The notes under the pieces were generated by a model that did not search any database, was not told where the DNA came from, and worked only from the letters and a program-made list of their open reading frames with translations. This document shows positions 6,436 to 18,100 of a DNA stretch of 64,000 bases, piece by piece; position 1 is the first letter of the stretch; the number at the start of each line of letters is the position of its first letter. Both the position numbers and the translations under genes were made by a program. The stretch comes from an uncultured Gammaproteobacteria bacterium (lineage in GTDB: Bacteria; Patescibacteriota; Microgenomatia; UBA8517): positions 23,832 to 87,831 of the forward strand of contig CAYSEQ010000003.1 of the NCBI GenBank assembly GCA_964430475.1. The letters are read 5' to 3'.

Positions 6436-7218
6436 TTAATTTTTATTCTTGGATTTAAAAGTTTTCCCTTTTTGGGTTTTCTTTTCTTTGGTAGACACTT
6501 TTTTAATTTTAGTTTTCAAGCTTTTCCCAGTTTTATGTGTTTCCTTAGAAAGTGTTAAAATTTTTTTAGTTCTCTTATCTTCAGGACCCTTGCCCCCAGA
6601 AAATCCTAAAATAGCGTCCTTCTCAATAAGAACTAGTCCGCCGGAAATAACTTCGTAAGCGTTAAGGCTTCCAAATGGAACTACCTTCAAATTTTCCAAG
6701 TTCCTAAAAAATCTAACCACCTTTCTATTCTCTTCTGAAACAACCAGAGTAATTTTATTAGGCCTTTTGCCCTTAAGCTCCTTTTTGATAATCAAATCCA
6801 AAAATTTAGCAGCATCTTTGGTTTTTTTAATACTAACAAGTTTATCCACACCCACCAAATTACCTTCTTTGGCTTTTAGTCCTAAAGCTAGCTCCAAAGC
6901 CTTACGACGGATATTCTTTGTTAGAGAAAGAATCCTTTTTACACCCTTCGGACCATGGGCAACACCACCACCAACAAATATGGGCGCTTTTACGCTACCA
7001 TGTCTTGCTCTACCTGTACCTTTTTGCCTCCATATCTTGGCAGTTGAACCTGCGACTTCACCCCTGGATTTAACTTTAGAAGTCCCTGGGTGTAGCCTAT
7101 CCTCATAAACCCTCTTGGCTTGAGCAAGTAAGTACAAATTTAGGTCTTCAAAAGCTTTTGGTAGGGCAGAACTACCTCTTTTGCCACTTTTTACTTGATA
7201 GATATTTATTTTCAACAT
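6436..7218 (-). CDS. rplD: 50S ribosomal protein L4 (uL4) with ~55-aa Lys-rich C-terminal extension
   Basis: QKGTGRARHGS motif of uL4; 260 aa, against ~200 typical. Confidence 0.85.
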   Translation of the reverse strand: MLKINIYQVKSGKRGSSALPKAFEDLNLYLLAQAKRVYEDRLHPGTSKVKSRGEVAGSTAKIWRQKGTGRARHGSVKAPIFVGGGVAHGPKGVKRILSLTKNIRRKALELALGLKAKEGNLVGVDKLVSIKKTKDAAKFLDLIIKKELKGKRPNKITLVVSEENRKVVRFFRNLENLKVVPFGSLNAYEVISGGLVLIEKDAILGFSGGKGPEDKRTKKILTLSKETHKTGKSLKTKIKKVSTKEKKTQKGKTFKSKNKN

Positions 7219-7221
7219 ATT

Positions 7222-7980
7222 TTAAGCTTGGGATTGAGAATTAATCTCTGCTGATTCATTCTCGTTTTTATTGGTTTCACTCTCCTCCTCTTCCTGAACC
7301 ACCTGAACTTCTGGAGCTTTTTCTTCAAGTTCTTCAATTTTTCCACTTCCCAATCTTTTTATGATTAAAAGACTGCCCCTCTGCCCTGGTAGCAAACCCG
7401 AGATAGCCAAAAGATTCTCCTCCGCTTGTATATCTACAACTACCAAATTCTTAACCGTGACCTTTCTGCCTCCCATCCTTCCAGCCATTTTTTTACCCTT
7501 CCAAACCCTACCAGGAGTAGTACCTTGACCTATGGAACCTGGTGCACGCTCACGATCACTTTGTCCATGTGTTCGGGGACCTCCACTAAATCCCCACCTT
7601 TTCACAACACCAGCAAACCCTTTTCCTTTGGAAATACCAGTTACCTGAACAACATCTCCTTTCCTAAAGATGTCAGAAACAGCGATAACATCACCAACCT
7701 TAAGTTCAGGCTCTTTATCAAGTTTTACTTCCCTTAAAAAACGCGGCGCTACCTTTTTTGACTCAACTACATTTCTAAGATGACCCAAAAGTGGCTTTGA
7801 AATATTTTTGATCTTTTTTTCTCCAAAACCCAGTTGAACTGCCCAATAACCATCCCTTGCTGGTTTTTTGACCTGAGTCACAACGCACGAACCCACCTTA
7901 ACCCAAGTAACAGGTACTCTTGTTGCCCCTATAAAAGTCTGGCTGGATTTTTCCTTTGTCGCTAGAATCGTATCTAACAT
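7222..7980 (-). CDS. rplC: 50S ribosomal protein L3 (uL3) with acidic C-terminal tail
   Basis: N-terminus aligns to uL3 (GATRVPVTWVKV...); C-terminal EEEESETNKNENESAE tail. Confidence 0.9.
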   Translation of the reverse strand: MLDTILATKEKSSQTFIGATRVPVTWVKVGSCVVTQVKKPARDGYWAVQLGFGEKKIKNISKPLLGHLRNVVESKKVAPRFLREVKLDKEPELKVGDVIAVSDIFRKGDVVQVTGISKGKGFAGVVKRWGFSGGPRTHGQSDRERAPGSIGQGTTPGRVWKGKKMAGRMGGRKVTVKNLVVVDIQAEENLLAISGLLPGQRGSLLIIKRLGSGKIEELEEKAPEVQVVQEEEESETNKNENESAEINSQSQA

Positions 7981-7990
7981 AACTTTTTCT

Positions 7991-8016
7991 CAAAAAAAAG
8001 AGCGCCCAAGGCGCCC
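7991..8016 (-). terminator. GC-rich hairpin (GGCGC/GCGCC) followed by a U8 tract on the minus strand, ~11 nt upstream of the rplC start; intrinsic-terminator/attenuator-like
   Basis: Seen directly: aaaaaaaagagcgcccaaggcgccctc on plus; its reverse complement gives stem-loop then UUUUUUUU. Confidence 0.5.
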
Positions 8017-8208
8017 TCTTCTAGGCACATCTTGGATATATCTTTGTGGTTTTTAAGTGTTTTGAACCACCTCCACTTTAGTGGTAAATTATATCAAACC
8101 CATACCAAAATTAGCAAGACTAAAAGTCTAGACAACAAAGTTGCACTCTTTGTACTATTAATGATATAAAATAAAACCTATAACTTGCTCACCTAAGCCT
8201 AAAATTTT

Positions 8209-8526
8209 ATGAAAGAAAGAAAATCTAATAAAGCACCTATCGCTATCCCGGAAAGAACAAACGAATTCTATGCCGACGAACAAACTAAAAGAGTATACGA
8301 AACCGCCCAAAAAGCAGTGCAGACTGCGTCTAAAATCCCTCCAGAAGGCCTAGAGCTTGCGAGAAATCCTATTACCTTTAAACCCGAGTATGAAGAAGAA
8401 GGGTTGGCTGTGGTTTTTGCTGTCGGAGGATTTCTTCCTTGTGGGGAAGATGAAAGGGTTATCCAAGTCCCAGATCGTACCTTGAAAGTTTTAGCTGAAA
8501 TGGGTATCCCTTATCAAATCTCGTAA
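8209..8526 (+). CDS. hypothetical protein (105 aa), first gene of a plus-strand module inserted between rpsJ and rplC
   Basis: Clean ORF; a TTGCAC-18nt-TATAAA promoter-like element lies upstream (8141-8170); no recognisable family. Confidence 0.4.
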   Translation: MKERKSNKAPIAIPERTNEFYADEQTKRVYETAQKAVQTASKIPPEGLELARNPITFKPEYEEEGLAVVFAVGGFLPCGEDERVIQVPDRTLKVLAEMGIPYQIS

Positions 8527-8612
8527 ACCCAACTTTAATCTCGCTACCCTTATAAATACTTTCCAGTAAACCCAATCTAACCCCACTTGATATATTCGTA
8601 TTTTTTCGTATC

Positions 8613-9785
8613 ATGAGCTTAAAAATGAAAAGGGGTATAGCAACCTTCAGTCTTGATTGGGGTAGAACTCCACAATGGCTTTTTGAGAGAATGCTAAAAC
8701 TTGCAAGAGAAATAACTTATGTTTTGATAGACGAGTATGGACCTGATGAGTACATAAAACGACTAGCTGATCCTATCTGGTTTCAATCTTTAGGAACGCT
8801 ACTTGCATTTGACTGGAACGCATCTGGATTGACAACAACTTTAACCGCAGTCCTAAAGGAGGCAATTCGTGGCCAAGAAAAAAACTTGGGCATCTTTATC
8901 TGTGGTGGAAAAGGAAAAGCTTCTAGAAAAACACCAAATGAAATCCAGTACTGGGGAGAGAGACTTAATCTTTCTGGAGAAAGGGTAAAAAATTTAATCT
9001 ACAACTCACGAATGGCAGCCAAGGTTGATAATTCTCTCGTCCAAGATGATTATCAAATTTACCATCACTGCTTTCTTTTTAGTAAAAATGGTTCCTGGAG
9101 CGTTATCCAACAAGGAATGAATTTAAAAAATCAAACCGCACGGCGCTATCATTGGCATTCGGAAAATATCAAAGATATCATTGAAGAACCTCACACAGGA
9201 ATTGCCAGCCAATTGATTCTCCAAAAAACCCTAAACTTAACTTCGTCTAAAAGTTCAAAGAATAGGGAGATTTCCCTTCAACTTGTAAATGCGGGTTTCG
9301 CAGCTTTAGTGAAAGATCTAAAAATCTTACGCAAACACTCCAGTAAATTGTCTAAAGTCTATACCTTTAGATACAAATCTGACGAATATTCTTGGATGAA
9401 ACTTGAGGATATTGAATTTTACTCTCACCCTGTTGAAAATGAAAACTTTTGGGAAAGCAAATATCTTGAAAAAATTCTGCGAAAGCTTTCAGATAAAAAA
9501 CCTAAAAACTACGAGGAGCTTCTTTCAGAAAGAGGTGTTGGGCCAAAAACTATTCGAGCTTTATCTCTAATTTCAGAATTGATTTACAATGCAAAACCTT
9601 CTTACGAAGACCCTGCACGCTACTGCTTTGCTCATGGAGGAAAGGACTCAATACCCTATCCTGTAGACAAAACCACTTACGATAAAACTATAAATATACT
9701 AGCTGAAATTGTTGGAAAAACAAAGTTGAATTCAATACAAAAAGACAAGATCCTAAAAAGACTCAACTCTAATCTTACATTTTAA
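8613..9785 (+). CDS. DUF763-like protein with helix-hairpin-helix motif (uncharacterised family, mostly archaeal)
   Basis: N-terminal MKRGIA...WGRTPQWLFERM...DPIWFQSLGTLLAFDWNASGLTTT...GGKGKASRKTP resembles DUF763 from memory. GVGPKTIRALSLISELIY is a classic HhH. 3' end overlaps the rpsJ 3' end convergently by 11 nt. Confidence 0.5.
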   Translation: MSLKMKRGIATFSLDWGRTPQWLFERMLKLAREITYVLIDEYGPDEYIKRLADPIWFQSLGTLLAFDWNASGLTTTLTAVLKEAIRGQEKNLGIFICGGKGKASRKTPNEIQYWGERLNLSGERVKNLIYNSRMAAKVDNSLVQDDYQIYHHCFLFSKNGSWSVIQQGMNLKNQTARRYHWHSENIKDIIEEPHTGIASQLILQKTLNLTSSKSSKNREISLQLVNAGFAALVKDLKILRKHSSKLSKVYTFRYKSDEYSWMKLEDIEFYSHPVENENFWESKYLEKILRKLSDKKPKNYEELLSERGVGPKTIRALSLISELIYNAKPSYEDPARYCFAHGGKDSIPYPVDKTTYDKTINILAEIVGKTKLNSIQKDKILKRLNSNLTF

Positions 9786-10086
9786 TTTCTATGGAGACAC
9801 CAGCCGGAAGGTCAAGATTTGAAAGAGAATCAATAGTGCGACTTGTAGGATCAATAATATCAATTAAACGCTTATGAACCAGCACTTCAAAATGCTCTTG
9901 GGCATTTTTAACTCCTCTGGAAGTTGATGGAACAACTGAAATTAATGTCTTTTTAGTTGGAAGAGGAATTGGACCTTTTATTTTTGCACCCGTTGCAATA
10001 GCAGTATCAACAATCTTAACGGTTGCTTCATCCACAACTCTATGGTCGTAACCTTTCAATTTAACCCTTAACCTACTCGATCCCAT
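9775..10086 (-). CDS. rpsJ: 30S ribosomal protein S10 (uS10)
   Basis: 103 aa; RVKLKGYDHRVVDEA...LDLPAGVSIEI aligns with uS10. Confidence 0.9.
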   Translation of the reverse strand: MGSSRLRVKLKGYDHRVVDEATVKIVDTAIATGAKIKGPIPLPTKKTLISVVPSTSRGVKNAQEHFEVLVHKRLIDIIDPTSRTIDSLSNLDLPAGVSIEIKM

Positions 10087-10144: not shown

Positions 10145-11344
10145 TTAAGCAATAATTTTGGTAATTACTCCAGCACCAACTGTGTGACCACCCTCACGAA
10201 TAGCAAATCTCAAACCTTCCTCAACCGCAACAGGTTGTATAAGCTTCACTTTCATCTTTGCATTATCACCAGGCATTACCATTTCTATCCCTTCTGGAAG
10301 AGTCACTTCACCAGTGACATCTGCTGTGCGGATATAAAATTGAGGCTTGTAGCCGGTAAAGAAGGGGGTATGCCTTCCTCCTTCCTCCTTACTTAAGATG
10401 TAAACCTCAGCATCAAACTCTGTATGAGGAGTAACACTACCGGGTTTTGCTAATACCTGGCCTCTTTCAACCTCATCCTTTTCAATACCCCTTAAGAGTA
10501 TACCGACATTGTCTCCTGCTTGGGCTTGATCAAGTGTCTTTCTAAACATCTCTATACCTGTAACTACTGTTTTTCGGGTATCCCTTAAACCAACAATTTC
10601 TACCTCCTCATTAAGCGATAATATTCCTCTTTCTACCCTACCAGTGACAACAGTTCCCCTTCCCTTAATCGAGAAAACATCCTCAATAGGCATTAAAAAT
10701 GGCTTCTCTGTTTCGCGTTTGGGCTCAGGTATATACTCATCGACAGTTTTCATTAACTCCAATACCTGTTTTTCAGCTTCAGCATCCCCTTCTAGGGCCT
10801 TGAGAGCAGAGACTCTTACAATAGGGGTATCTTCAGAATATTGATATTTCTTAAGAAGATCTCTTATGTCCGCTTCCACAAGTTCTATAATCTCCGGATC
10901 ATCAACCTGATCAATCTTGTTTAATGCAACAACCAATGCCGGAACATTTACCTGCCTTGCCAAAATAATGTGTTCCCTAGTCTGAGGCATGGGTCCATCC
11001 GGCGCTGAAACGACCAGGATTGCTCCATCCATTTGTGCTGCTCCGGTAATCATGTTTTTGATATAGTCAGCATGCCCCGGTGCATCAATATGGGCATAAT
11101 GCCTTTTGTCAGTCTCGTATTCTACATGGGTAATGTTAATTGTTACTCCTCTTTCCTTTTCTTCGGGAGCATTATCTATCTCATCAAAGCGGTAAGGCCT
11201 ATTTACTCCACCAGGAAAATTTTTTGCCAGCACAGAGGTTATAGCAGCTGTCAAAGTGGTCTTACCATGATCAACATGACCAATAGTACCTATATTGATA
11301 TGAGGTTTTGTCCTCTCAAATTTTTTCTTTGTTTCTGCTGCCAT
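10145..11344 (-). CDS. tuf: elongation factor Tu
   Basis: [23 protein letters not shown]-like, NKxD motifs; 399 aa. Confidence 0.95.
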
Positions 11345-11453: not shown

Positions 11454-13631
11454 TTATGTGTTTCTATGAAATGTTACCGTGCCTCTCTGGGATATTAAAT
11501 TACTAGCTATATTTGGCGGAACTTCTTCATAATGGCTAGGCTCCATATAAAAACTTGCCCTGCCTTGGGAAATTGAACGAAGTCGTGTGGCGTATCCTGC
11601 TAGTTCAGCAAGTGGGGCTAATGCTAAAATGACCGTAAGATTTCCCCTCTTTTCTGTCCCTTGGATCTGGGCTCTCTTACTTGACAGATCGCCGATGATA
11701 TCGCCCATGAATTCTTCTGGTGCAGTCACTTCAAGTTTCATGATAGGCTCAAGGAGCACCATATCAGCTTTTTTTGCCGCCTCCTCAAGTGCTAAAGATC
11801 CTGCAATCTTGAATGCTATCTCGGAGGAATCAACTTCATGAAAGCTTCCGTCATAAACAACAACCCTCATATCAGTCATTGGGAAACCCGCCAAAATACC
11901 ATTTTCCATCTTTTCTCTGACCCCTTTTTCAATGGCAGGAATAAATTCCGCAGGAATGGCACCACCTTTTATTTCACTCTTCCACTCAAAACCCTGCCCC
12001 CTACCAAGAGGTTCTATTCTTAAAAAGCAATGTCCATATTGCCCTCTTCCCCCGGTTTGGCGTATATATTTTCCTTCACCAGTAGCAATCTTTTTTATAG
12101 TTTCTTTATAAGCAACCTGAGGAGTACCAGTTTTGGCATCGACACCAAATTCTCTCTTCATTCGGTCAACAAGTATCTCAAGTTGGAGTTCTCCCATACC
12201 GGAAATAATCGTCTGACCCGTTTCAGGATTTGACTTTATCCTAAATGTAGGATCCTCATCTGAAAGTTTCTGAAGCGCAATACCCATCTTTTCCTGATCC
12301 TGTTTAGTTGCAGGCTCGATAGCCAAAGAAATCACGGGTTCAGGAAATGTAGGCGGTTCAAAAAGAATTGGATGGTTTCTATCTGCCAAGGTGTCTCCTG
12401 TTGAGGTATCTTTTATACCTACTGCAGCCACAATTTCGCCTGTAAATGCCTCCTCAATCAATTCTCTCTGATCCGCATGAAGAAGTACAAGTTTCCCTAT
12501 ACGCTCAGCTTTTTGTTTACTAAAATTGTAAACAACATCACCTACCTTTACCTTTCCAGAATAAATTCTCAAGTATACTAGCCTTCCCACATGCGGATCC
12601 GTAACCACTTTAAAAGCAAGCGCAGAAAAGGGGGCGTTGTTGCTGGGTTCTCTTGTTTCTTTCTCTTGTGTCTGAGGATTTAACCCTTCCACTGGAGGTA
12701 AATCTAATGGCGAAGGTAAATACTCGATCACTGCGTCTAAAAGAAGCTGGACAGTTACCATTCGGTTATCCCCACCTAAAATTGGGAAAAATTTGCCCGT
12801 AATTACACCCTTTCTTATTGCTCTTTTAAGCTCTACTTCGCTGGGTTCCTTACCCTCCAAATACTTTTGCAACGCTTCATCATCAAACTCAGAAACCTTC
12901 TCAATTAACTCAGCTCGGTAAGCTTTTGCCATTTCCAAAACCTCGGCTGGAATTTCTTCTTCTGTCAATTTATTATCGTCAATACCTTTGTAAGTGTAAG
13001 CCTTCATTTTCACTAGATCGACAACACCCCTAAGCGCATGTTCTAACCCAATTGGAATTTGAATTGGGGAAGCGTTGGCACCAAGACGCTCCCTTATAGA
13101 TTTAATACTCCCCTCAAAATCCGCACCTATTAAATTTAATTTATTCAAAGAACAAATCCTTGGAACATGGTATTTATCTGCTTGCCTCCAAACTGTTTCT
13201 GATTGACTCTCTACACCAGTCCTACCATCAAAGACCATTATTGCACCATCCAAAACCCTTAATGAACGTTCGACTTCAGCGGTGAAATCAATATGGCCAG
13301 GGGTGTCAATGATATTTATCCTATAATGCCCTTGGGCTAGGGGTGAATTTTCTTCTCTAAGATCCCAAAAAGTAGTAATCGCTGCCGAAACAATTGTTAT
13401 ACCTCGTTCCCTTTCCTGTTCCATCCAGTCAGTAACTGTAGTTCCTTCATCAACGCTTCCTAGTTTATAGGTCTTTCCGGTCTCAAAGAGAATTCTTTCT
13501 GTAGTCGTGGTCTTTCCAGCATCAATATGAGCAATAATCCCAATATTCCGGATTTTTTCCAATGGAACAATACGGTCTTTTGTAACCGTCATCACCATAG
13601 CTGACTTTTTTTTGATCTGCTGTGCCGGCAT
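11454..13631 (-). CDS. fusA: elongation factor G
   Basis: AHIDAGKTTTTERIL, five-domain length 725 aa; str-operon position. Confidence 0.95.
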   Translation of the reverse strand: MPAQQIKKKSAMVMTVTKDRIVPLEKIRNIGIIAHIDAGKTTTTERILFETGKTYKLGSVDEGTTVTDWMEQERERGITIVSAAITTFWDLREENSPLAQGHYRINIIDTPGHIDFTAEVERSLRVLDGAIMVFDGRTGVESQSETVWRQADKYHVPRICSLNKLNLIGADFEGSIKSIRERLGANASPIQIPIGLEHALRGVVDLVKMKAYTYKGIDDNKLTEEEIPAEVLEMAKAYRAELIEKVSEFDDEALQKYLEGKEPSEVELKRAIRKGVITGKFFPILGGDNRMVTVQLLLDAVIEYLPSPLDLPPVEGLNPQTQEKETREPSNNAPFSALAFKVVTDPHVGRLVYLRIYSGKVKVGDVVYNFSKQKAERIGKLVLLHADQRELIEEAFTGEIVAAVGIKDTSTGDTLADRNHPILFEPPTFPEPVISLAIEPATKQDQEKMGIALQKLSDEDPTFRIKSNPETGQTIISGMGELQLEILVDRMKREFGVDAKTGTPQVAYKETIKKIATGEGKYIRQTGGRGQYGHCFLRIEPLGRGQGFEWKSEIKGGAIPAEFIPAIEKGVREKMENGILAGFPMTDMRVVVYDGSFHEVDSSEIAFKIAGSLALEEAAKKADMVLLEPIMKLEVTAPEEFMGDIIGDLSSKRAQIQGTEKRGNLTVILALAPLAELAGYATRLRSISQGRASFYMEPSHYEEVPPNIASNLISQRGTVTFHRNT

Positions 13632-14303: not shown

Positions 14304-14780
14304 TTAAGGGCTGGGGGATTCAGTTGAAGCCCCTCCTACTGAAACCTTACTCTGGATACCTTCCTTACCTTTAGTACCATATTTGCTCCTTGAAGTCTTC
14401 CTCCCGACAACACCTGTGGTATCGTATTTACCCCTGACAATAGTGTATTTCACTCCAGGCAAGTCCTTGACTCTTCCACCCCTTACCAAAACAATGGAGT
14501 GTTCCGCTAATTCATGCCCTTCTCCAGGAATATAAGCCGTTACCTCCTGTTTATTCGACAGCCTAACCCTTGCAACCTTCCTGAGCGCAGAATTAGGTTT
14601 CTTAGGGGTCATAGTTCGAACCTGCAAAACAACCCCTCTTTTAAAGGGTGCTGGAAATTCAGAAAATCTCCTATCTTTGGCACTAAACCAGCGCTTTAGC
14701 GCCTTTTTCTTTATCTTTTTCAAGATCTTTTTTCTTCCTTTCCTTACTAATTGAGAAACTGTTGGCATAGTATTAATCAA
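14304..14780 (-). CDS. rpsL: 30S ribosomal protein S12 (uS12) with internal insertion and C-terminal extension
   Basis: [11 protein letters not shown]...[12 protein letters not shown]...core; 158 aa against ~124. Alternative start at MPTVSQL (14768). Confidence 0.85.
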
Positions 14781-15148
14781 AAATTAAAAAGGGGAATAGC
14801 TTCCCAAGCCTAAAATTCTACTACAATTTTCCTCTCTCGGCAATATCCTTTACACATTAAAATAAAGATTGCAAAATCCCTAGATTATTAAATGTTAATT
14901 CTAAATCCCAAAACCTAATTTTTTAAAATTTTAAACAAGTCTTAAATTCCAAACTTAAAATTAAAAATCCTAAAATACCAAACCACAAATATTGGTTTTC
15001 TGATACTCCAAATAGAAACCTTTATTCCAAAAAATTATCTAGAAACCAAAACCATTAAAGGCAGGGATTCTTGTTATCAAGAAACTATCATTGGTTATTA
15101 ATATCTTTTGGAGGTATCATTAAACTACTGGTATTTTTTCTAAGAACA

Positions 15149-18100
15149 TTAAGATTTAACTTCCAAAGAAGCTCTTTCAGGGGTAACTGGTATAAGACGA
15201 CCTATAATAACATTCTCCTTAAGACCTATAAGTTTATCTTCTTTGCCCAGAAGGGCAGCGGTTGCGAGTACATCTGTTGTTTGCTGAAAAGATGCAGCTG
15301 ACAGCCAAGACTCTGTAAATAGTGCTCTTCTGGTGATGCCCAGAATTACTTGTTGAGCTGTCGCAGGTTCGCCACCAGCTGCTAACACTTTCTCATTCTC
15401 TTCTTCAAAAGTAGCCTTCTCAATAAGTTCACCAGGAAGAAGGGGAGTATCACCAGAGCTTAAGATTCGTACCTCATCGCTCATTTTCCTCACTATCACT
15501 TCGAAGTGTTTATCATGAATAGGTATTCCTTGGCTTTCATAAACCTTTTGTACCTCGTTAACCAAGTACTCTTGAGCGCTTCTTAAACCCTTGATTGAAA
15601 GAATTTCGCGAATATCAAGGGCGCCTATCGCCAAAGGCGTGCCTACCTCAATTATTTGACCATCCTCAACTGCAAGTTGAATCGTTTTGGGTATGATATA
15701 TTCTCTTTCTTCCTTTGGTTTTTGTTTCACTGAAACAATAGTGACCTTCCAACCTTCTTCCGTCTCACCAATTCTTACCTTACCAGAAATCTCGGCCAAG
15801 GGAGCCATCACTTTTGGTGTCCTTGCTTCAATCAACTCTTCAACTCTCGGCAAACCCTGTGTCACATCTATACCCACAATTCCTGCTGCGTGTTTCGTCT
15901 TAAGAGTCAGCTGTGTCCCGGGTTCACCTATCGACTGTGCAGCAATTACACCAACTGGGGTTCCTACCTCTACAAGAGACTTGTTAGAAAGGTCCCAACC
16001 ATAACACTTAACACAAACACCGTACCTTGTCTTACAAGTCAAGGGTGAATAAACGCTAACTTGCTCCACTCCAGATGCATCAATTTCATTAGCTTTGACT
16101 TCATCTATTAAATCTCCCTTGAGTGCAAGAATTTTTTCCTTCCTTCCTTGCTTAATCTTTACATCCTCACTAACAAATCTGCCTGTGATACGAGTTGCAA
16201 AAGATTTGGGCCTAGGTTCTCTTTTTATGATAAATCCCTCGTTAGTACCACAATCTTTCATCCTTACAATTACATCGTGAGCAACATCAACAAGTCGCCT
16301 TGTAAGATATCCTGCATCGGCAGTTTTCAAGGCTGTATCAGTCAAACCCTTCCTTGATCCTCTGGAAGAAGTCACATATTCAAATACTGGCAACCCCTCC
16401 CGGAAATTGGATTTTATTGGTAATTCCACTATTTTGCCCAAAGGATCCACTACCAAACCTCTCATCGCTGCGAGCTGTTTGACCTGATCTCTTGAAGTTC
16501 TCCCAACACCTGCATCAATTGCAATCCTAATAGGGTTACTAGAATCCAAAAGACTCCAGGTCTTGTCAGTTAATTCCTCGGCAATTTCTATCCAAACCTC
16601 CTGAGTAAGCCTTCTTTTTTCTTCGTTAGTTATCAGCCCCTGTGCGTAATTTTCCTCAATCTCGGCAATCTTTGCATTTGCTTGTCTTATCAATTTTTCT
16701 TTCTCTGGATGAACCTTTGCGTCAAAAATTCCAAAAGAAACTCCTGACACTGTCCCACCAAAAAATCCAAGATCTTTTATTGCATCGATCATTTCTACTA
16801 CTTTTTCTCTCGGAACAGTGGTAAATGCTTCGGTAAATAATTTTTTGATTTTTGAGGACGTGATAGATTCATTTACAAAACCAAAACTTTCAGGTAAAAC
16901 CTCATTAAAAATAATCCTGCCCACTGTAGTTTCAACAAGACTGCCATTGACTCGTAGCGTAATTTTTTGCCTTAAATCGATCTTCCCGACCTGATAAGCA
17001 AGAATTGCCTCTTTAGTGTCAGAAAAGATGCTTTTCGATGGTTCAATCCTTGAATCCTCACTGGTTAGATAATAAATTCCTAGCGCCATTTCTTTACTTG
17101 AAGGAGTGGTGATTGGTGAACCATCTGCAGGTCTTAAAAGATTATGCCGAGGAAGCATCAATTCTTTTGCCTCTTTAATTGCCTTTTTAGAAAGAGGAAC
17201 ATGCACAGCCATTTGATCGCCATCAAAATCTGCATTAAACCCACTACAAACAGCTGGGTGAATCCTAATTGCAGATCCTTCAATAAGGATGGGGTAAAAG
17301 GCTTGGATACCTAATTTGTGAAGCGTGGGTGCACGATTCAGAAGGACTGGATGATCCTTCGTTATTTCCTCTAGAATATCAAACACTTCTGGTGGGCGAT
17401 GCTCTAGCATATTCTTAGCACTTTTGACATTAGGAGCAATTCCTCTGACTATCATTTCTCTAAGAACAAAGGGTTTAAACATCTCAAGTGCCATATCCTT
17501 TGGCAAACCACATTGGTTGAGCTTAAGCTCAGGACCGACGATAATGACTGACCGACCGGAATAATCCACTCTTTTTCCTAAGAGATTCTGTCTAAATCTA
17601 CCCTGTTTACCGCGAAGCATATCGGAAAGTGATCTTAACGGCTGTCTTCCTCTACCTCTCCGGGTTGCCTTCCTTTGAGATGCATCGATAAGAGAATCCA
17701 CAGATTCTTGCAACATTCTCTTTTCATTTCTTAGAATTATTTCAGGAGCACCTAACTCAATAAGGTGTTTTAAACGATTATTTCTATTGATTACTCTTCT
17801 ATAAAGATCATTCAGATCGCTAGTCGCAAACCTTCCCCCTGAAAGTTGGACCATCGGACGAAGGTCAGGTGGAAGAACAGGAAGAACCCTCAGTACAAAC
17901 CAGGAAGGGTTAATTTTGGCCCTTCTTAAACCATCAACCAATTTCAATCTTTTGGTTAACTTGACATAACGATTACTATCCCCTTTTGTCGCCTCAAGCT
18001 CTTTACGAAGACTAGCTGCAAGTTCCTCAAGGTTAATCTTTTCAATGGCTGCAAGGACTGCCTCAGCACCCATCTTCGCCTCAAAAAAGTCTGAAGCCTT

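Follow-up and report, generated by a model that had tools for sequence, protein, structure and literature searches.

We describe here the junction between the ribosomal protein genes rpsJ and rplC in a bacterium of the Patescibacteriota (Microgenomatia; UBA8517 in the GTDB lineage), on a stretch of 64,000 nucleotides (nt) of contig CAYSEQ010000003.1 (assembly GCA_964430475.1) that we call the window and whose positions are used throughout. Two genes on the plus strand, one of the DUF763 family and one encoding a protein of 105 amino acids (aa), occupy the 1794 nt between these two minus-strand genes. With a probability of roughly 0.7, we read this arrangement as a lineage-specific, vertically inherited relocation of a gene into a transcription-unit boundary that already existed, and not as the disruption of an operon. 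On this reading, rpsJ would end the str/tuf unit in this clade of Microgenomates-like bacteria of the candidate phyla radiation (CPR), and the rplC operon would start afresh at a near-consensus extended −10 promoter; the hairpin ahead of rplC would act as an attenuator, with read-through required for an operon of at least 16 genes. The DNA from the rpsJ stop codon to the −35 box of the rplC promoter would be permissive, with different genes settling there in different relatives, since two independent units would leave the intervening DNA tolerant of insertions; this would explain both the varied cargo and the fixation of DUF763. One subclade would have fixed DUF763 divergent from rplC, with its own promoter and a specific upstream motif, and the window genome would later have gained the unrelated 105-aa gene.

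The minus strand of the window carries the str-S10-spc genes in the order rpoC, rpsL, rpsG, fusA, tuf, rpsJ, then the gap, then rplC, rplD, rplW, rplB and on to at least rplF (Table 1); by product, the rplC-led operon reads L3-L4-L23-L2-S19-L22-S3-L16-L29-S17-L14-L24-L5-S14-S8-L6 and further. The spacing from tuf to rpsJ is 58 nt, and rpsJ has no leader of its own. The initial annotation of this DNA had claimed that one of the most conserved adjacencies in bacteria is broken here by about 1.8 kb of opposite-strand DNA with two genes and a promoter-like element, and the claim holds. Both plus-strand open reading frames (ORFs) are present, one of 105 aa and one of up to 390 aa, a consensus scan finds promoter-like sites in the gap on both strands, and the rpsJ–rplC gap measures only 8–315 nt in all 52 of the more distant bacterial loci with sufficient upstream sequence. 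The convergent overlap of the DUF763 and rpsJ stop codons is likewise exact: DUF763 ends with TAA at 9783-9785, and the two genes share 11 nt tail to tail (9775-9785). The further claim that these genes split the S10 operon stands for the gene order but not as a disruption of the operon, since rplC has its own predicted promoter and a conserved leader.

The junction comparison draws on 80 loci retrieved by a metagenome scan with L3. Whether rpsJ and rplC are contiguous in related genomes, a question raised by the initial annotation, has a mixed answer among the close relatives (rplC/L3 61–72% identical): they are contiguous in six loci, with a gap of 124–195 nt, but are set apart by 582–3224 nt filled with unrelated genes in seven others (six distinct sequences, L024 being the same as L025). 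Three further close-relative loci have no rpsJ within 1.6–3.5 kb upstream of rplC. None of these relatives has DUF763 in its rpsJ–rplC gap; their cargo comprises a TlyA/FtsJ-like methyltransferase (L022 and L044), toxin–antitoxin-like small ORFs (L024), or helix-turn-helix, histidine-phosphatase and epimerase genes (L041). Since the cargo differs between genomes, we take the gap to be a recurrent insertion site in this clade. The rRNA methyltransferase-like ORF, identified by motif only (SRAGEKLQ...SSTGGF), occurs independently at L022:895-1449 and L044:3823-4389, on the strand of the ribosomal genes.

The window's own layout, with rplC and DUF763 divergent and DUF763 and rpsJ convergent, is found on the window contig and on contigs of five other datasets (Table 1), and so is not an assembly artefact. 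In these loci DUF763 is 67–74% and L3 67–72% identical to the window proteins. Their gaps differ in what else they hold: L016 has a metallophosphoesterase (Metallophos) gene and a NUDIX gene there, L021 has two small ORFs on the minus strand, and L017 and L018 have nothing more. The 3′ spacing of DUF763 and rpsJ varies as well, with the 11-nt overlap recurring in L021, gaps of 97 nt in L018 and 580 nt in L017, and other genes in between in L016; where relatives have a spacer at this position, no convincing terminator was found between DUF763 and rpsJ. The five DUF763-junction loci cluster together in a neighbor-joining (NJ) tree of L3, which fits a single ancestral rearrangement followed by vertical inheritance. 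Away from the junction, DUF763 was located in L020 (68% identical) and in 14 GTDB representative loci, and rpsJ, rplC and tuf are absent within 6 kb of it in all of them.

The second line of evidence is the region immediately upstream of rplC, which is conserved as a promoter followed by a leader of ∼90 nt. The promoter is kept in 23 loci as TTGCnn-17-TGnTATAAT, with TATAAT in 22 of the 23, the TGn extension in 20 and the 17-nt spacer in 19. From its 5′ end, the leader consists of an element, (G/A)UGGAGGUGGUU, predicted to form a hairpin (P1), then a linker, then a terminator. Read in the sense of rplC, five loci share the succession of a TATAAT box, (G/A)TGGAGGTGGTT, ∼12 nt, TAA-CCAC, CCAAGATGTGCC, GGGCGCC-loop-GGCGCCC and a run of six to eight T, with the rplC ATG 10–13 nt further on. 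A covariance model built from 21 leader sequences and searched over 705 kb of loci gave 25 matches, representing 23 distinct loci, one per locus and each immediately 5′ of rplC; the window leader is matched at 7994-8084 on the minus strand (73.5 bits, E = 1.8e-12). Essentially all of the close relatives have the leader, with or without inserted genes, and it is also present where rpsJ and rplC are spaced by 124–195 nt without any insertion.

Structural support is strongest for the terminator helix, which is 97% paired over 24 sequences, with compensatory changes in four of its seven pairs. P1 is 86% paired with some compensatory changes, the combined leader structure does better than any of 500 column shuffles on four measures out of five, and the fold of the whole window leader has z = −3.9 (RNAfold). 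The GC-rich hairpin that the initial annotation took for a module boundary and a mark of insertion is this covariation-supported terminator of a conserved rplC leader, present in relatives without interruption. Rfam holds no family for the leader at E ≤ 10, apart from a spurious match of Atu_C8 to the terminator only, and nothing in the window reaches an Rfam gathering threshold; the window holds no rRNA.

From the U-run of the terminator to the rplC ATG there are 11 nt in the window and 9–30 nt in most loci. This leaves no room for a promoter between the hairpin and the gene; all transcripts of the operon would therefore have to pass the hairpin, which would make it an attenuator. Transcription of the operon probably starts at the 8117-8088 promoter or arrives by read-through from rpsJ; in the window, the DNA upstream holds the opposite-strand genes.

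Table 1. Features at the rpsJ–rplC junction of the window, and other loci with DUF763 at this junction
Feature	Position or locus	Strand	Details
rplC (L3)	7222-7980	−	Pfam Ribosomal_L3, E = 3e-19; heads a long ribosomal protein operon
Terminator/attenuator hairpin	7992-8022	−	Stem 8022-8010/8006-7994, U8 7999-7992; RNAfold; the hairpin given as 7991-8016 in the initial annotation
Linker motif CCAAGATGTGCC	8024-8035	−	Conserved in alignments; GUGCC is a candidate antiterminator partner of the terminator 5′ arm
Hairpin P1	8046-8070	−	GUGGUU (8070-8065) with AACCAC (8051-8046); 5′ arm inside the invariant GGAGGUGGUU
Candidate 7-codon mini-ORF	8053-8076	−	GTG GAG GTG GTT CAA AAC ACT TAA; start 11 nt past the −10 box, hence near-leaderless
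rplC-operon promoter	8088-8117	−	−35 TTGCTA (8117-8112), 18-nt spacer, extended −10 TGATATAAT (8096-8088); consensus scan
Promoter-like site for the 105-aa ORF	8129-8158	+	TAGACA-18-TACTAT; consensus match only; back-to-back with the rplC promoter
105-aa accessory gene	8209-8526	+	Sparse uncharacterised family; motif LPPEG...AGTV...VPERTL.IL..LGIPY
DUF763 promoter-like site	8587-8614	+	TTGATA-16-TATCAT; spacer contains TTCGTATTTTTTCGTA (8595-8610); predicted mRNA near-leaderless
DUF763 gene	8625-9785	+	386 aa; PF05559; alternative upstream ATG 8613 (390 aa)
rpsJ (S10)	9775-10086	−	Pfam Ribosomal_S10, E = 7e-28; last gene of the rpsL-rpsG-fusA-tuf-rpsJ unit
tuf	10145-11344	−	Gene order
fusA	11454-13631	−	Gene order
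Junction loci with DUF763	L016 (SRR22387890), L017 (ERR15087778), L018/L019 (SRR27730042/43), L021 (GCA_900174565.1)		

The 5′ end of the leader may also be coding. An ORF of six or seven codons (MEVVxxx*) occurs in 21 of the 23 leaders, starting with ATG or GTG 7–12 nt past the −10 box and ending with TAA, TAG or TGA. Insertions and deletions in L052 and L043 leave its frame intact, and the divergent L042 and L046 keep it too. The leader further contains an invariant GGAGGUG(G/A)U, an 8–10 nt complement of the canonical 3′ end of 16S rRNA, in a genome that looks poor in Shine–Dalgarno (SD) sequences: an SD-like tetramer stands at −20 to −4 of only 10 of the 53 long ORFs in the window, rplC has none, and A/T-rich sequence stands ahead of most starts. 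From their predicted promoters, DUF763 and the mini-ORF would have leaderless or near-leaderless mRNAs, and this spacing suggests that the mini-ORF would be read near-leaderless and that its translation would melt P1. Another candidate leader peptide, from the conserved GATGTGCC, was rejected: its ATG is not conserved (GAAGTGCC and GAGTGCC also occur), and the frames stop after two or three codons in L016 and L022.

The larger gap gene belongs to the DUF763 family, as the initial annotation had surmised: the hidden Markov model (HMM) PF05559 matches it with 413.3 bits against a cut-off of 35.5 (E = 9e-124), over profile positions 1-319 of 319. Its start is most likely ATG 8625 rather than 8613, because all homologues open with MKRGIATF and the public call for the identical protein has 386 aa. 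The family had been described as mostly archaeal, which proved mistaken, as its CPR, archaeal and rhizobial members run to thousands; about 8000 matches were returned for a CPR query and likewise for an archaeal one. Named homologues, from which the CPR affiliation was drawn, belong to Daviesbacteria, Curtissbacteria and Levyibacteriota. CPR and archaeal members are 41–47% identical, as compared to at least 60% between archaeal orders. An alignment of 43 CPR and archaeal sequences has 65 invariant columns, all matched by the window protein, and the family-invariant motifs GGKG, YHH, QQG, ARRYHW, EPH, G.GPK..RAL and, near the C-terminus, FAHGGKD..PYP are all present. Compared with other PF05559 members the protein is thus unexceptional, and its genomic position alone is unusual.

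What had been called a clear helix-hairpin-helix (HhH) is HhH-like at the level of sequence and model, but no Pfam HhH model matches the protein, which has a weak match to HRDC (E = 0.077). The HhH-like motif spans residues 297-319 (LLSERGVGPKTIRALSLI), with invariant G304, G306, R311, A312 and L313 and model helices at 296-301 and 307-319. The AlphaFold2 model has a predicted local distance difference test (pLDDT) score of 73.8, and the invariant FAHGGKD loop is of low confidence in it. For DUF763, neither a relative with a solved structure nor a connection by fold or family to a ribosome factor was found; NCBIfam, PADLOC (E ≤ 0.1) and PHROGs have no match to either gap protein; and our literature search returned no characterized DUF763 member, the name occurring only as that of a domain. 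Plasmid-borne copies are seen in rhizobia (on chromids; 230 plasmid records), in Legionella (on one plasmid) and in haloarchaea (on megaplasmids), and 50,697 phage records gave no match. The HhH-like motif and the invariant His, Asp, Lys and Arg motifs lead us to the tentative and rather doubtful guess that DUF763 is a putative stand-alone nucleic-acid-binding enzyme, for DNA or RNA repair or processing or for a translation-related substrate.

DUF763 occurs in ∼16 distinct neighborhoods, with no constant partner: pyrG-rplS→DUF763←uvrB; TGT-Sua5→DUF763; L31e-eIF6-DUF763; DUF763-Lhr; DUF763-PAN; CofD-DUF763; NadA-DUF763; ferredoxin-DUF763-DUF1861; and monocistronic. A link to DNA repair (Lhr, UvrB, Metallophos) and a link to translation each appear in a few cases. 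In our view DUF763 is a protein of the housekeeping type that evolves slowly, is encoded as a rule by a monocistronic gene and is shared by archaea, CPR bacteria and rhizobia. In a Hadarchaeota metagenome-assembled genome (MAG), DUF763 and an Lhr-type helicase gene share 13 nt (L014:5980-9902), and at L016:5225-7388 a metallophosphoesterase gene starts 2 nt after the DUF763 stop codon (one base between). Lhr with a metallophosphoesterase nuclease is a known bacterial repair operon. These neighbors give hints of a DNA-repair connection. Two further observations concern the labels of the source genomes. Loci L004, L007 and L010, labelled uncultured Gammaproteobacteria, have the pyrG-rplS-DUF763-uvrB synteny of the Levyibacteriota MAG L005, which points to misbinning; and L002 and L003, labelled Latescibacterota and one of them a 4.5-Mb chromosome, encode a DUF763 with 65% identity to that of CPR bacteria, which would point to horizontal transfer or contamination.

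A motif specific to DUF763, TTCGTATTTT(T/A)TTCGTA (or TTTGTATTTTTTTCGTA), precedes its ATG by 10–16 nt as a direct repeat in two genomic contexts that are unrelated; ∼0.9 Mb of loci contain it at no other place. Besides the window site (8595-8610, plus strand), it is found at L005:5978-5994, L007:3416-3432, L010:5968-5984, L017:7982-7998, L018:5972-5988 and L021:5974-5990, and in the junction clade it occupies the spacer of a promoter of the form TTGATA-16/17-TAnnAT. It may serve as an operator or as an element of the 5′ untranslated region, possibly for autoregulation.

The smaller gap gene has a different history. Its family is sparse, with 70 relatives at E ≤ 1e-3 among 1.84 billion representatives, and it received no family annotation from Pfam, NCBIfam, PADLOC or PHROGs; the predicted fold is a generic ferredoxin-like α/β. 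We judge it, from these relatives and its distribution, to be a real gene and a recent addition to the window genome, not a partner of DUF763. The initial annotation had joined the two in a two-gene module, an idea that has to be given up: the 105-aa ORF is absent from every other DUF763-bearing junction, so that the two genes do not form a unit. The family domain is sometimes fused to NUDIX or MmyB-like domains, and a functional link with NUDIX hydrolases is possible. One NUDIX fusion is seen in P0272 (303 aa), and the rpsJ–rplC gap of L016 contains a separate NUDIX gene (7392-7883).

Several other explanations of the junction deserve weighing. DUF763 might be kept there for a role in the ribosome or in translation, such as rRNA or tRNA processing or association with the ribosome, its position being selected for co-regulation through antisense transcription of, or collision with, rpsJ, or through a shared divergent control region. 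Its place has stayed the same while L3 diverged to ∼67–72% identity, the 11-nt rpsJ overlap recurs in L021, and the conservation of DUF763 is of the extreme kind typical of information-processing proteins; elsewhere DUF763 follows rplS (L004-L007, L010), TGT-Sua5/YrdC (L009) and, with a 4-nt overlap, L31e-eIF6 (Altiarchaeales), and it lies near TruD, Trm56 and PTH2 in Methanocellales. We nonetheless hold such a role to be fairly unlikely, as most of its surroundings have nothing to do with translation (PAN, Lhr, CofD, NadA, PBP/glycosyltransferases, ferredoxin/DUF1861, rhizobial chromids), DNA-repair neighbors (uvrB, Lhr) are about equally frequent, DUF763 is missing from the junction in close relatives that share the leader, the rpsJ overlap is lost in L018, L017 and L016, and the protein has no fold or family link to a ribosome factor. 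Far less credible, and largely refuted, is the reading that the two plus-strand genes entered the S10 operon as a selfish insertion, an option offered by the initial annotation, or as a mobile element or defence island, and that the hairpin marks the boundary. It could appeal to the position of the genes against the strand of a gene order that is otherwise highly conserved, to the variable junction cargo of relatives (including the toxin–antitoxin-like small ORFs of L024), and to the occurrence of DUF763 on plasmids or chromids of rhizobia, Legionella and haloarchaea. The gap itself, however, has no flanking direct or inverted repeats that we could find, no transposase or integrase domain in either ORF (Pfam), and no shift in composition, its GC content of 0.35–0.40 comparing with 0.37–0.44 in the flanks and only strand-linked skews changing sign. 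It also lacks PADLOC, PHROGs and phage matches, its hairpin belongs to a conserved rplC leader that exists where nothing is inserted, the 105-aa ORF and DUF763 do not travel together, and the DUF763 layout appears vertically inherited within one subclade.

A remaining alternative concerns the leader, which could be a small-RNA (sRNA) gene of ∼90 nt, a plain terminator of rpsJ read-through, or both, with rplC living on constitutive leakage. A near-consensus promoter with a strong terminator ∼95 nt on has the anatomy of an sRNA gene, the hairpin is the sole terminator after rpsJ in relatives whose two genes are adjacent, and the alternative antiterminator structure finds no support against shuffles. 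We think this unlikely all the same: the U-run lies only 9–30 nt from the rplC ATG in most loci and there is no other promoter for an essential operon of at least 16 genes, which implies substantial read-through and an obvious control point; the element always stands immediately 5′ of rplC and never elsewhere; and no known sRNA family matches it.

Some of our own results weigh against the preferred reading, a relocation into a pre-existing boundary whose downstream unit starts at an attenuating leader. The candidate antiterminator helix GUGCC/GGCGC is 86% paired, a value matched by 56–85 of 500 shuffles. P1 can pair in two registers by sequence (GUGG/CCAC or GAGG/CCUC), which makes its structure less sure than that of the terminator. 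Only ∼3 independent events preserve the mini-ORF frame, and its stop codon overlaps the region beside the P1 3′ arm, so its conservation could partly be structural. The L3 NJ tree represents one protein and carries no support values, and promoter use, termination efficiency and read-through are all deduced from sequence. Finally, DUF763 lies beside ribosomal genes throughout the subclade and, elsewhere, near rplS, L31e-eIF6 and TGT-Sua5, so that to speak of mere cargo could underestimate a functional link.

How the attenuator would be controlled is a separate question. In a ribosome-sensing attenuator, which would be of a new kind, free ribosomes or subunits would engage the mini-ORF with its 16S complement, and the downstream terminator would form or not according to this engagement. 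We consider this quite improbable, and ribosome-mediated attenuation is for us a minority hypothesis because the conservation of the mini-ORF overlaps RNA structure, independent events are few, and the antiterminator does not rise above shuffles; a ribosomal protein sensor such as L4 is equally unproven. Short ORFs that serve as leader peptides in ribosome-mediated transcription attenuation are known from trp and pyrBI, and SD-based sensing of ribosome state in low-SD bacteria is known from Bacteroidetes rpsU. The rplC leader resembles these in having a very short ORF at its 5′ end, a terminator at its 3′ end, and a strong SD-like sequence in an apparently low-SD genome. It differs from them in having no regulatory codons, in lacking an antiterminator with statistical support, and in an SD-like sequence that lies inside the candidate mini-ORF instead of 5′ of a start.

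Two other known systems offer closer comparisons. In the E. coli S10 leader, L4 needs stem D for its regulatory effect, the attenuator hairpin being stem E; translation of rpsJ is a further step that L4 inhibits (PMC10578931). The leader described here is likewise the 5′ leader of an operon encoding L3 and L4, with an intrinsic terminator just before the first cistron that all transcripts would pass. Its first cistron is rplC and not rpsJ, its length is ∼90 nt compared to ∼170 nt, it has no similarity in sequence or structure and no Rfam match, and the invariant SD-like GGAGGUG and possible 7-codon mini-ORF set it further apart. Work by Zengel and Lindahl reportedly found a requirement for NusA in attenuation by L4 at the E. 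coli S10 leader. In archaea, cyanobacteria and plastids, S10 lies in the str cluster after EF-Tu/EF-1α, and the L3-L4-L23-L2 cluster is separate. The window order is similar, with rpsJ shortly after tuf and uncoupled from an rplC that heads its own unit, but here the two units are still same-strand neighbors, 0.1–3.2 kb apart in most relatives, and the gap between them is a variable cargo site.

Three further features were noted in the window. The L4 protein (rplD, 6436-7218) has a Lys-rich C-terminal tail of ∼55 aa and L3 (rplC, 7222-7980) an acidic, Ser/Asn-rich one of ∼35 aa, each exceeding the usual length of its protein. A low-GC stretch (0.29–0.34) at 14501-15250, in the rpsL–rpoC interval, is the minimum of the GC profile, which covered the first 20 kb of the window.

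The relocation reading would explain an apparent breach of a highly conserved bacterial adjacency: the junction would be a transcription-unit boundary at which genes may settle without harm to ribosome synthesis. The leader unit and the recurrent rpsJ–rplC cargo site described here vary the known theme of leaders and attenuators in ribosomal protein operons and combine it with a known type of uncoupling of str from S10. DUF763 is among the better-conserved uncharacterized proteins common to archaea, CPR bacteria and rhizobia, and tractable hosts exist for it (Rhizobium, Sinorhizobium and haloarchaea). The leader, which occurs in 23 loci, has support from covariation and matches no Rfam entry, adds a candidate cis-regulatory RNA for the main ribosomal protein operon of an uncultured phylum, in organisms for which almost nothing is known of gene regulation. 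If the ribosome-sensing hypothesis were true, the main ribosomal protein operon of these CPR bacteria would be controlled by ribosome availability and not by a repressor ribosomal protein.

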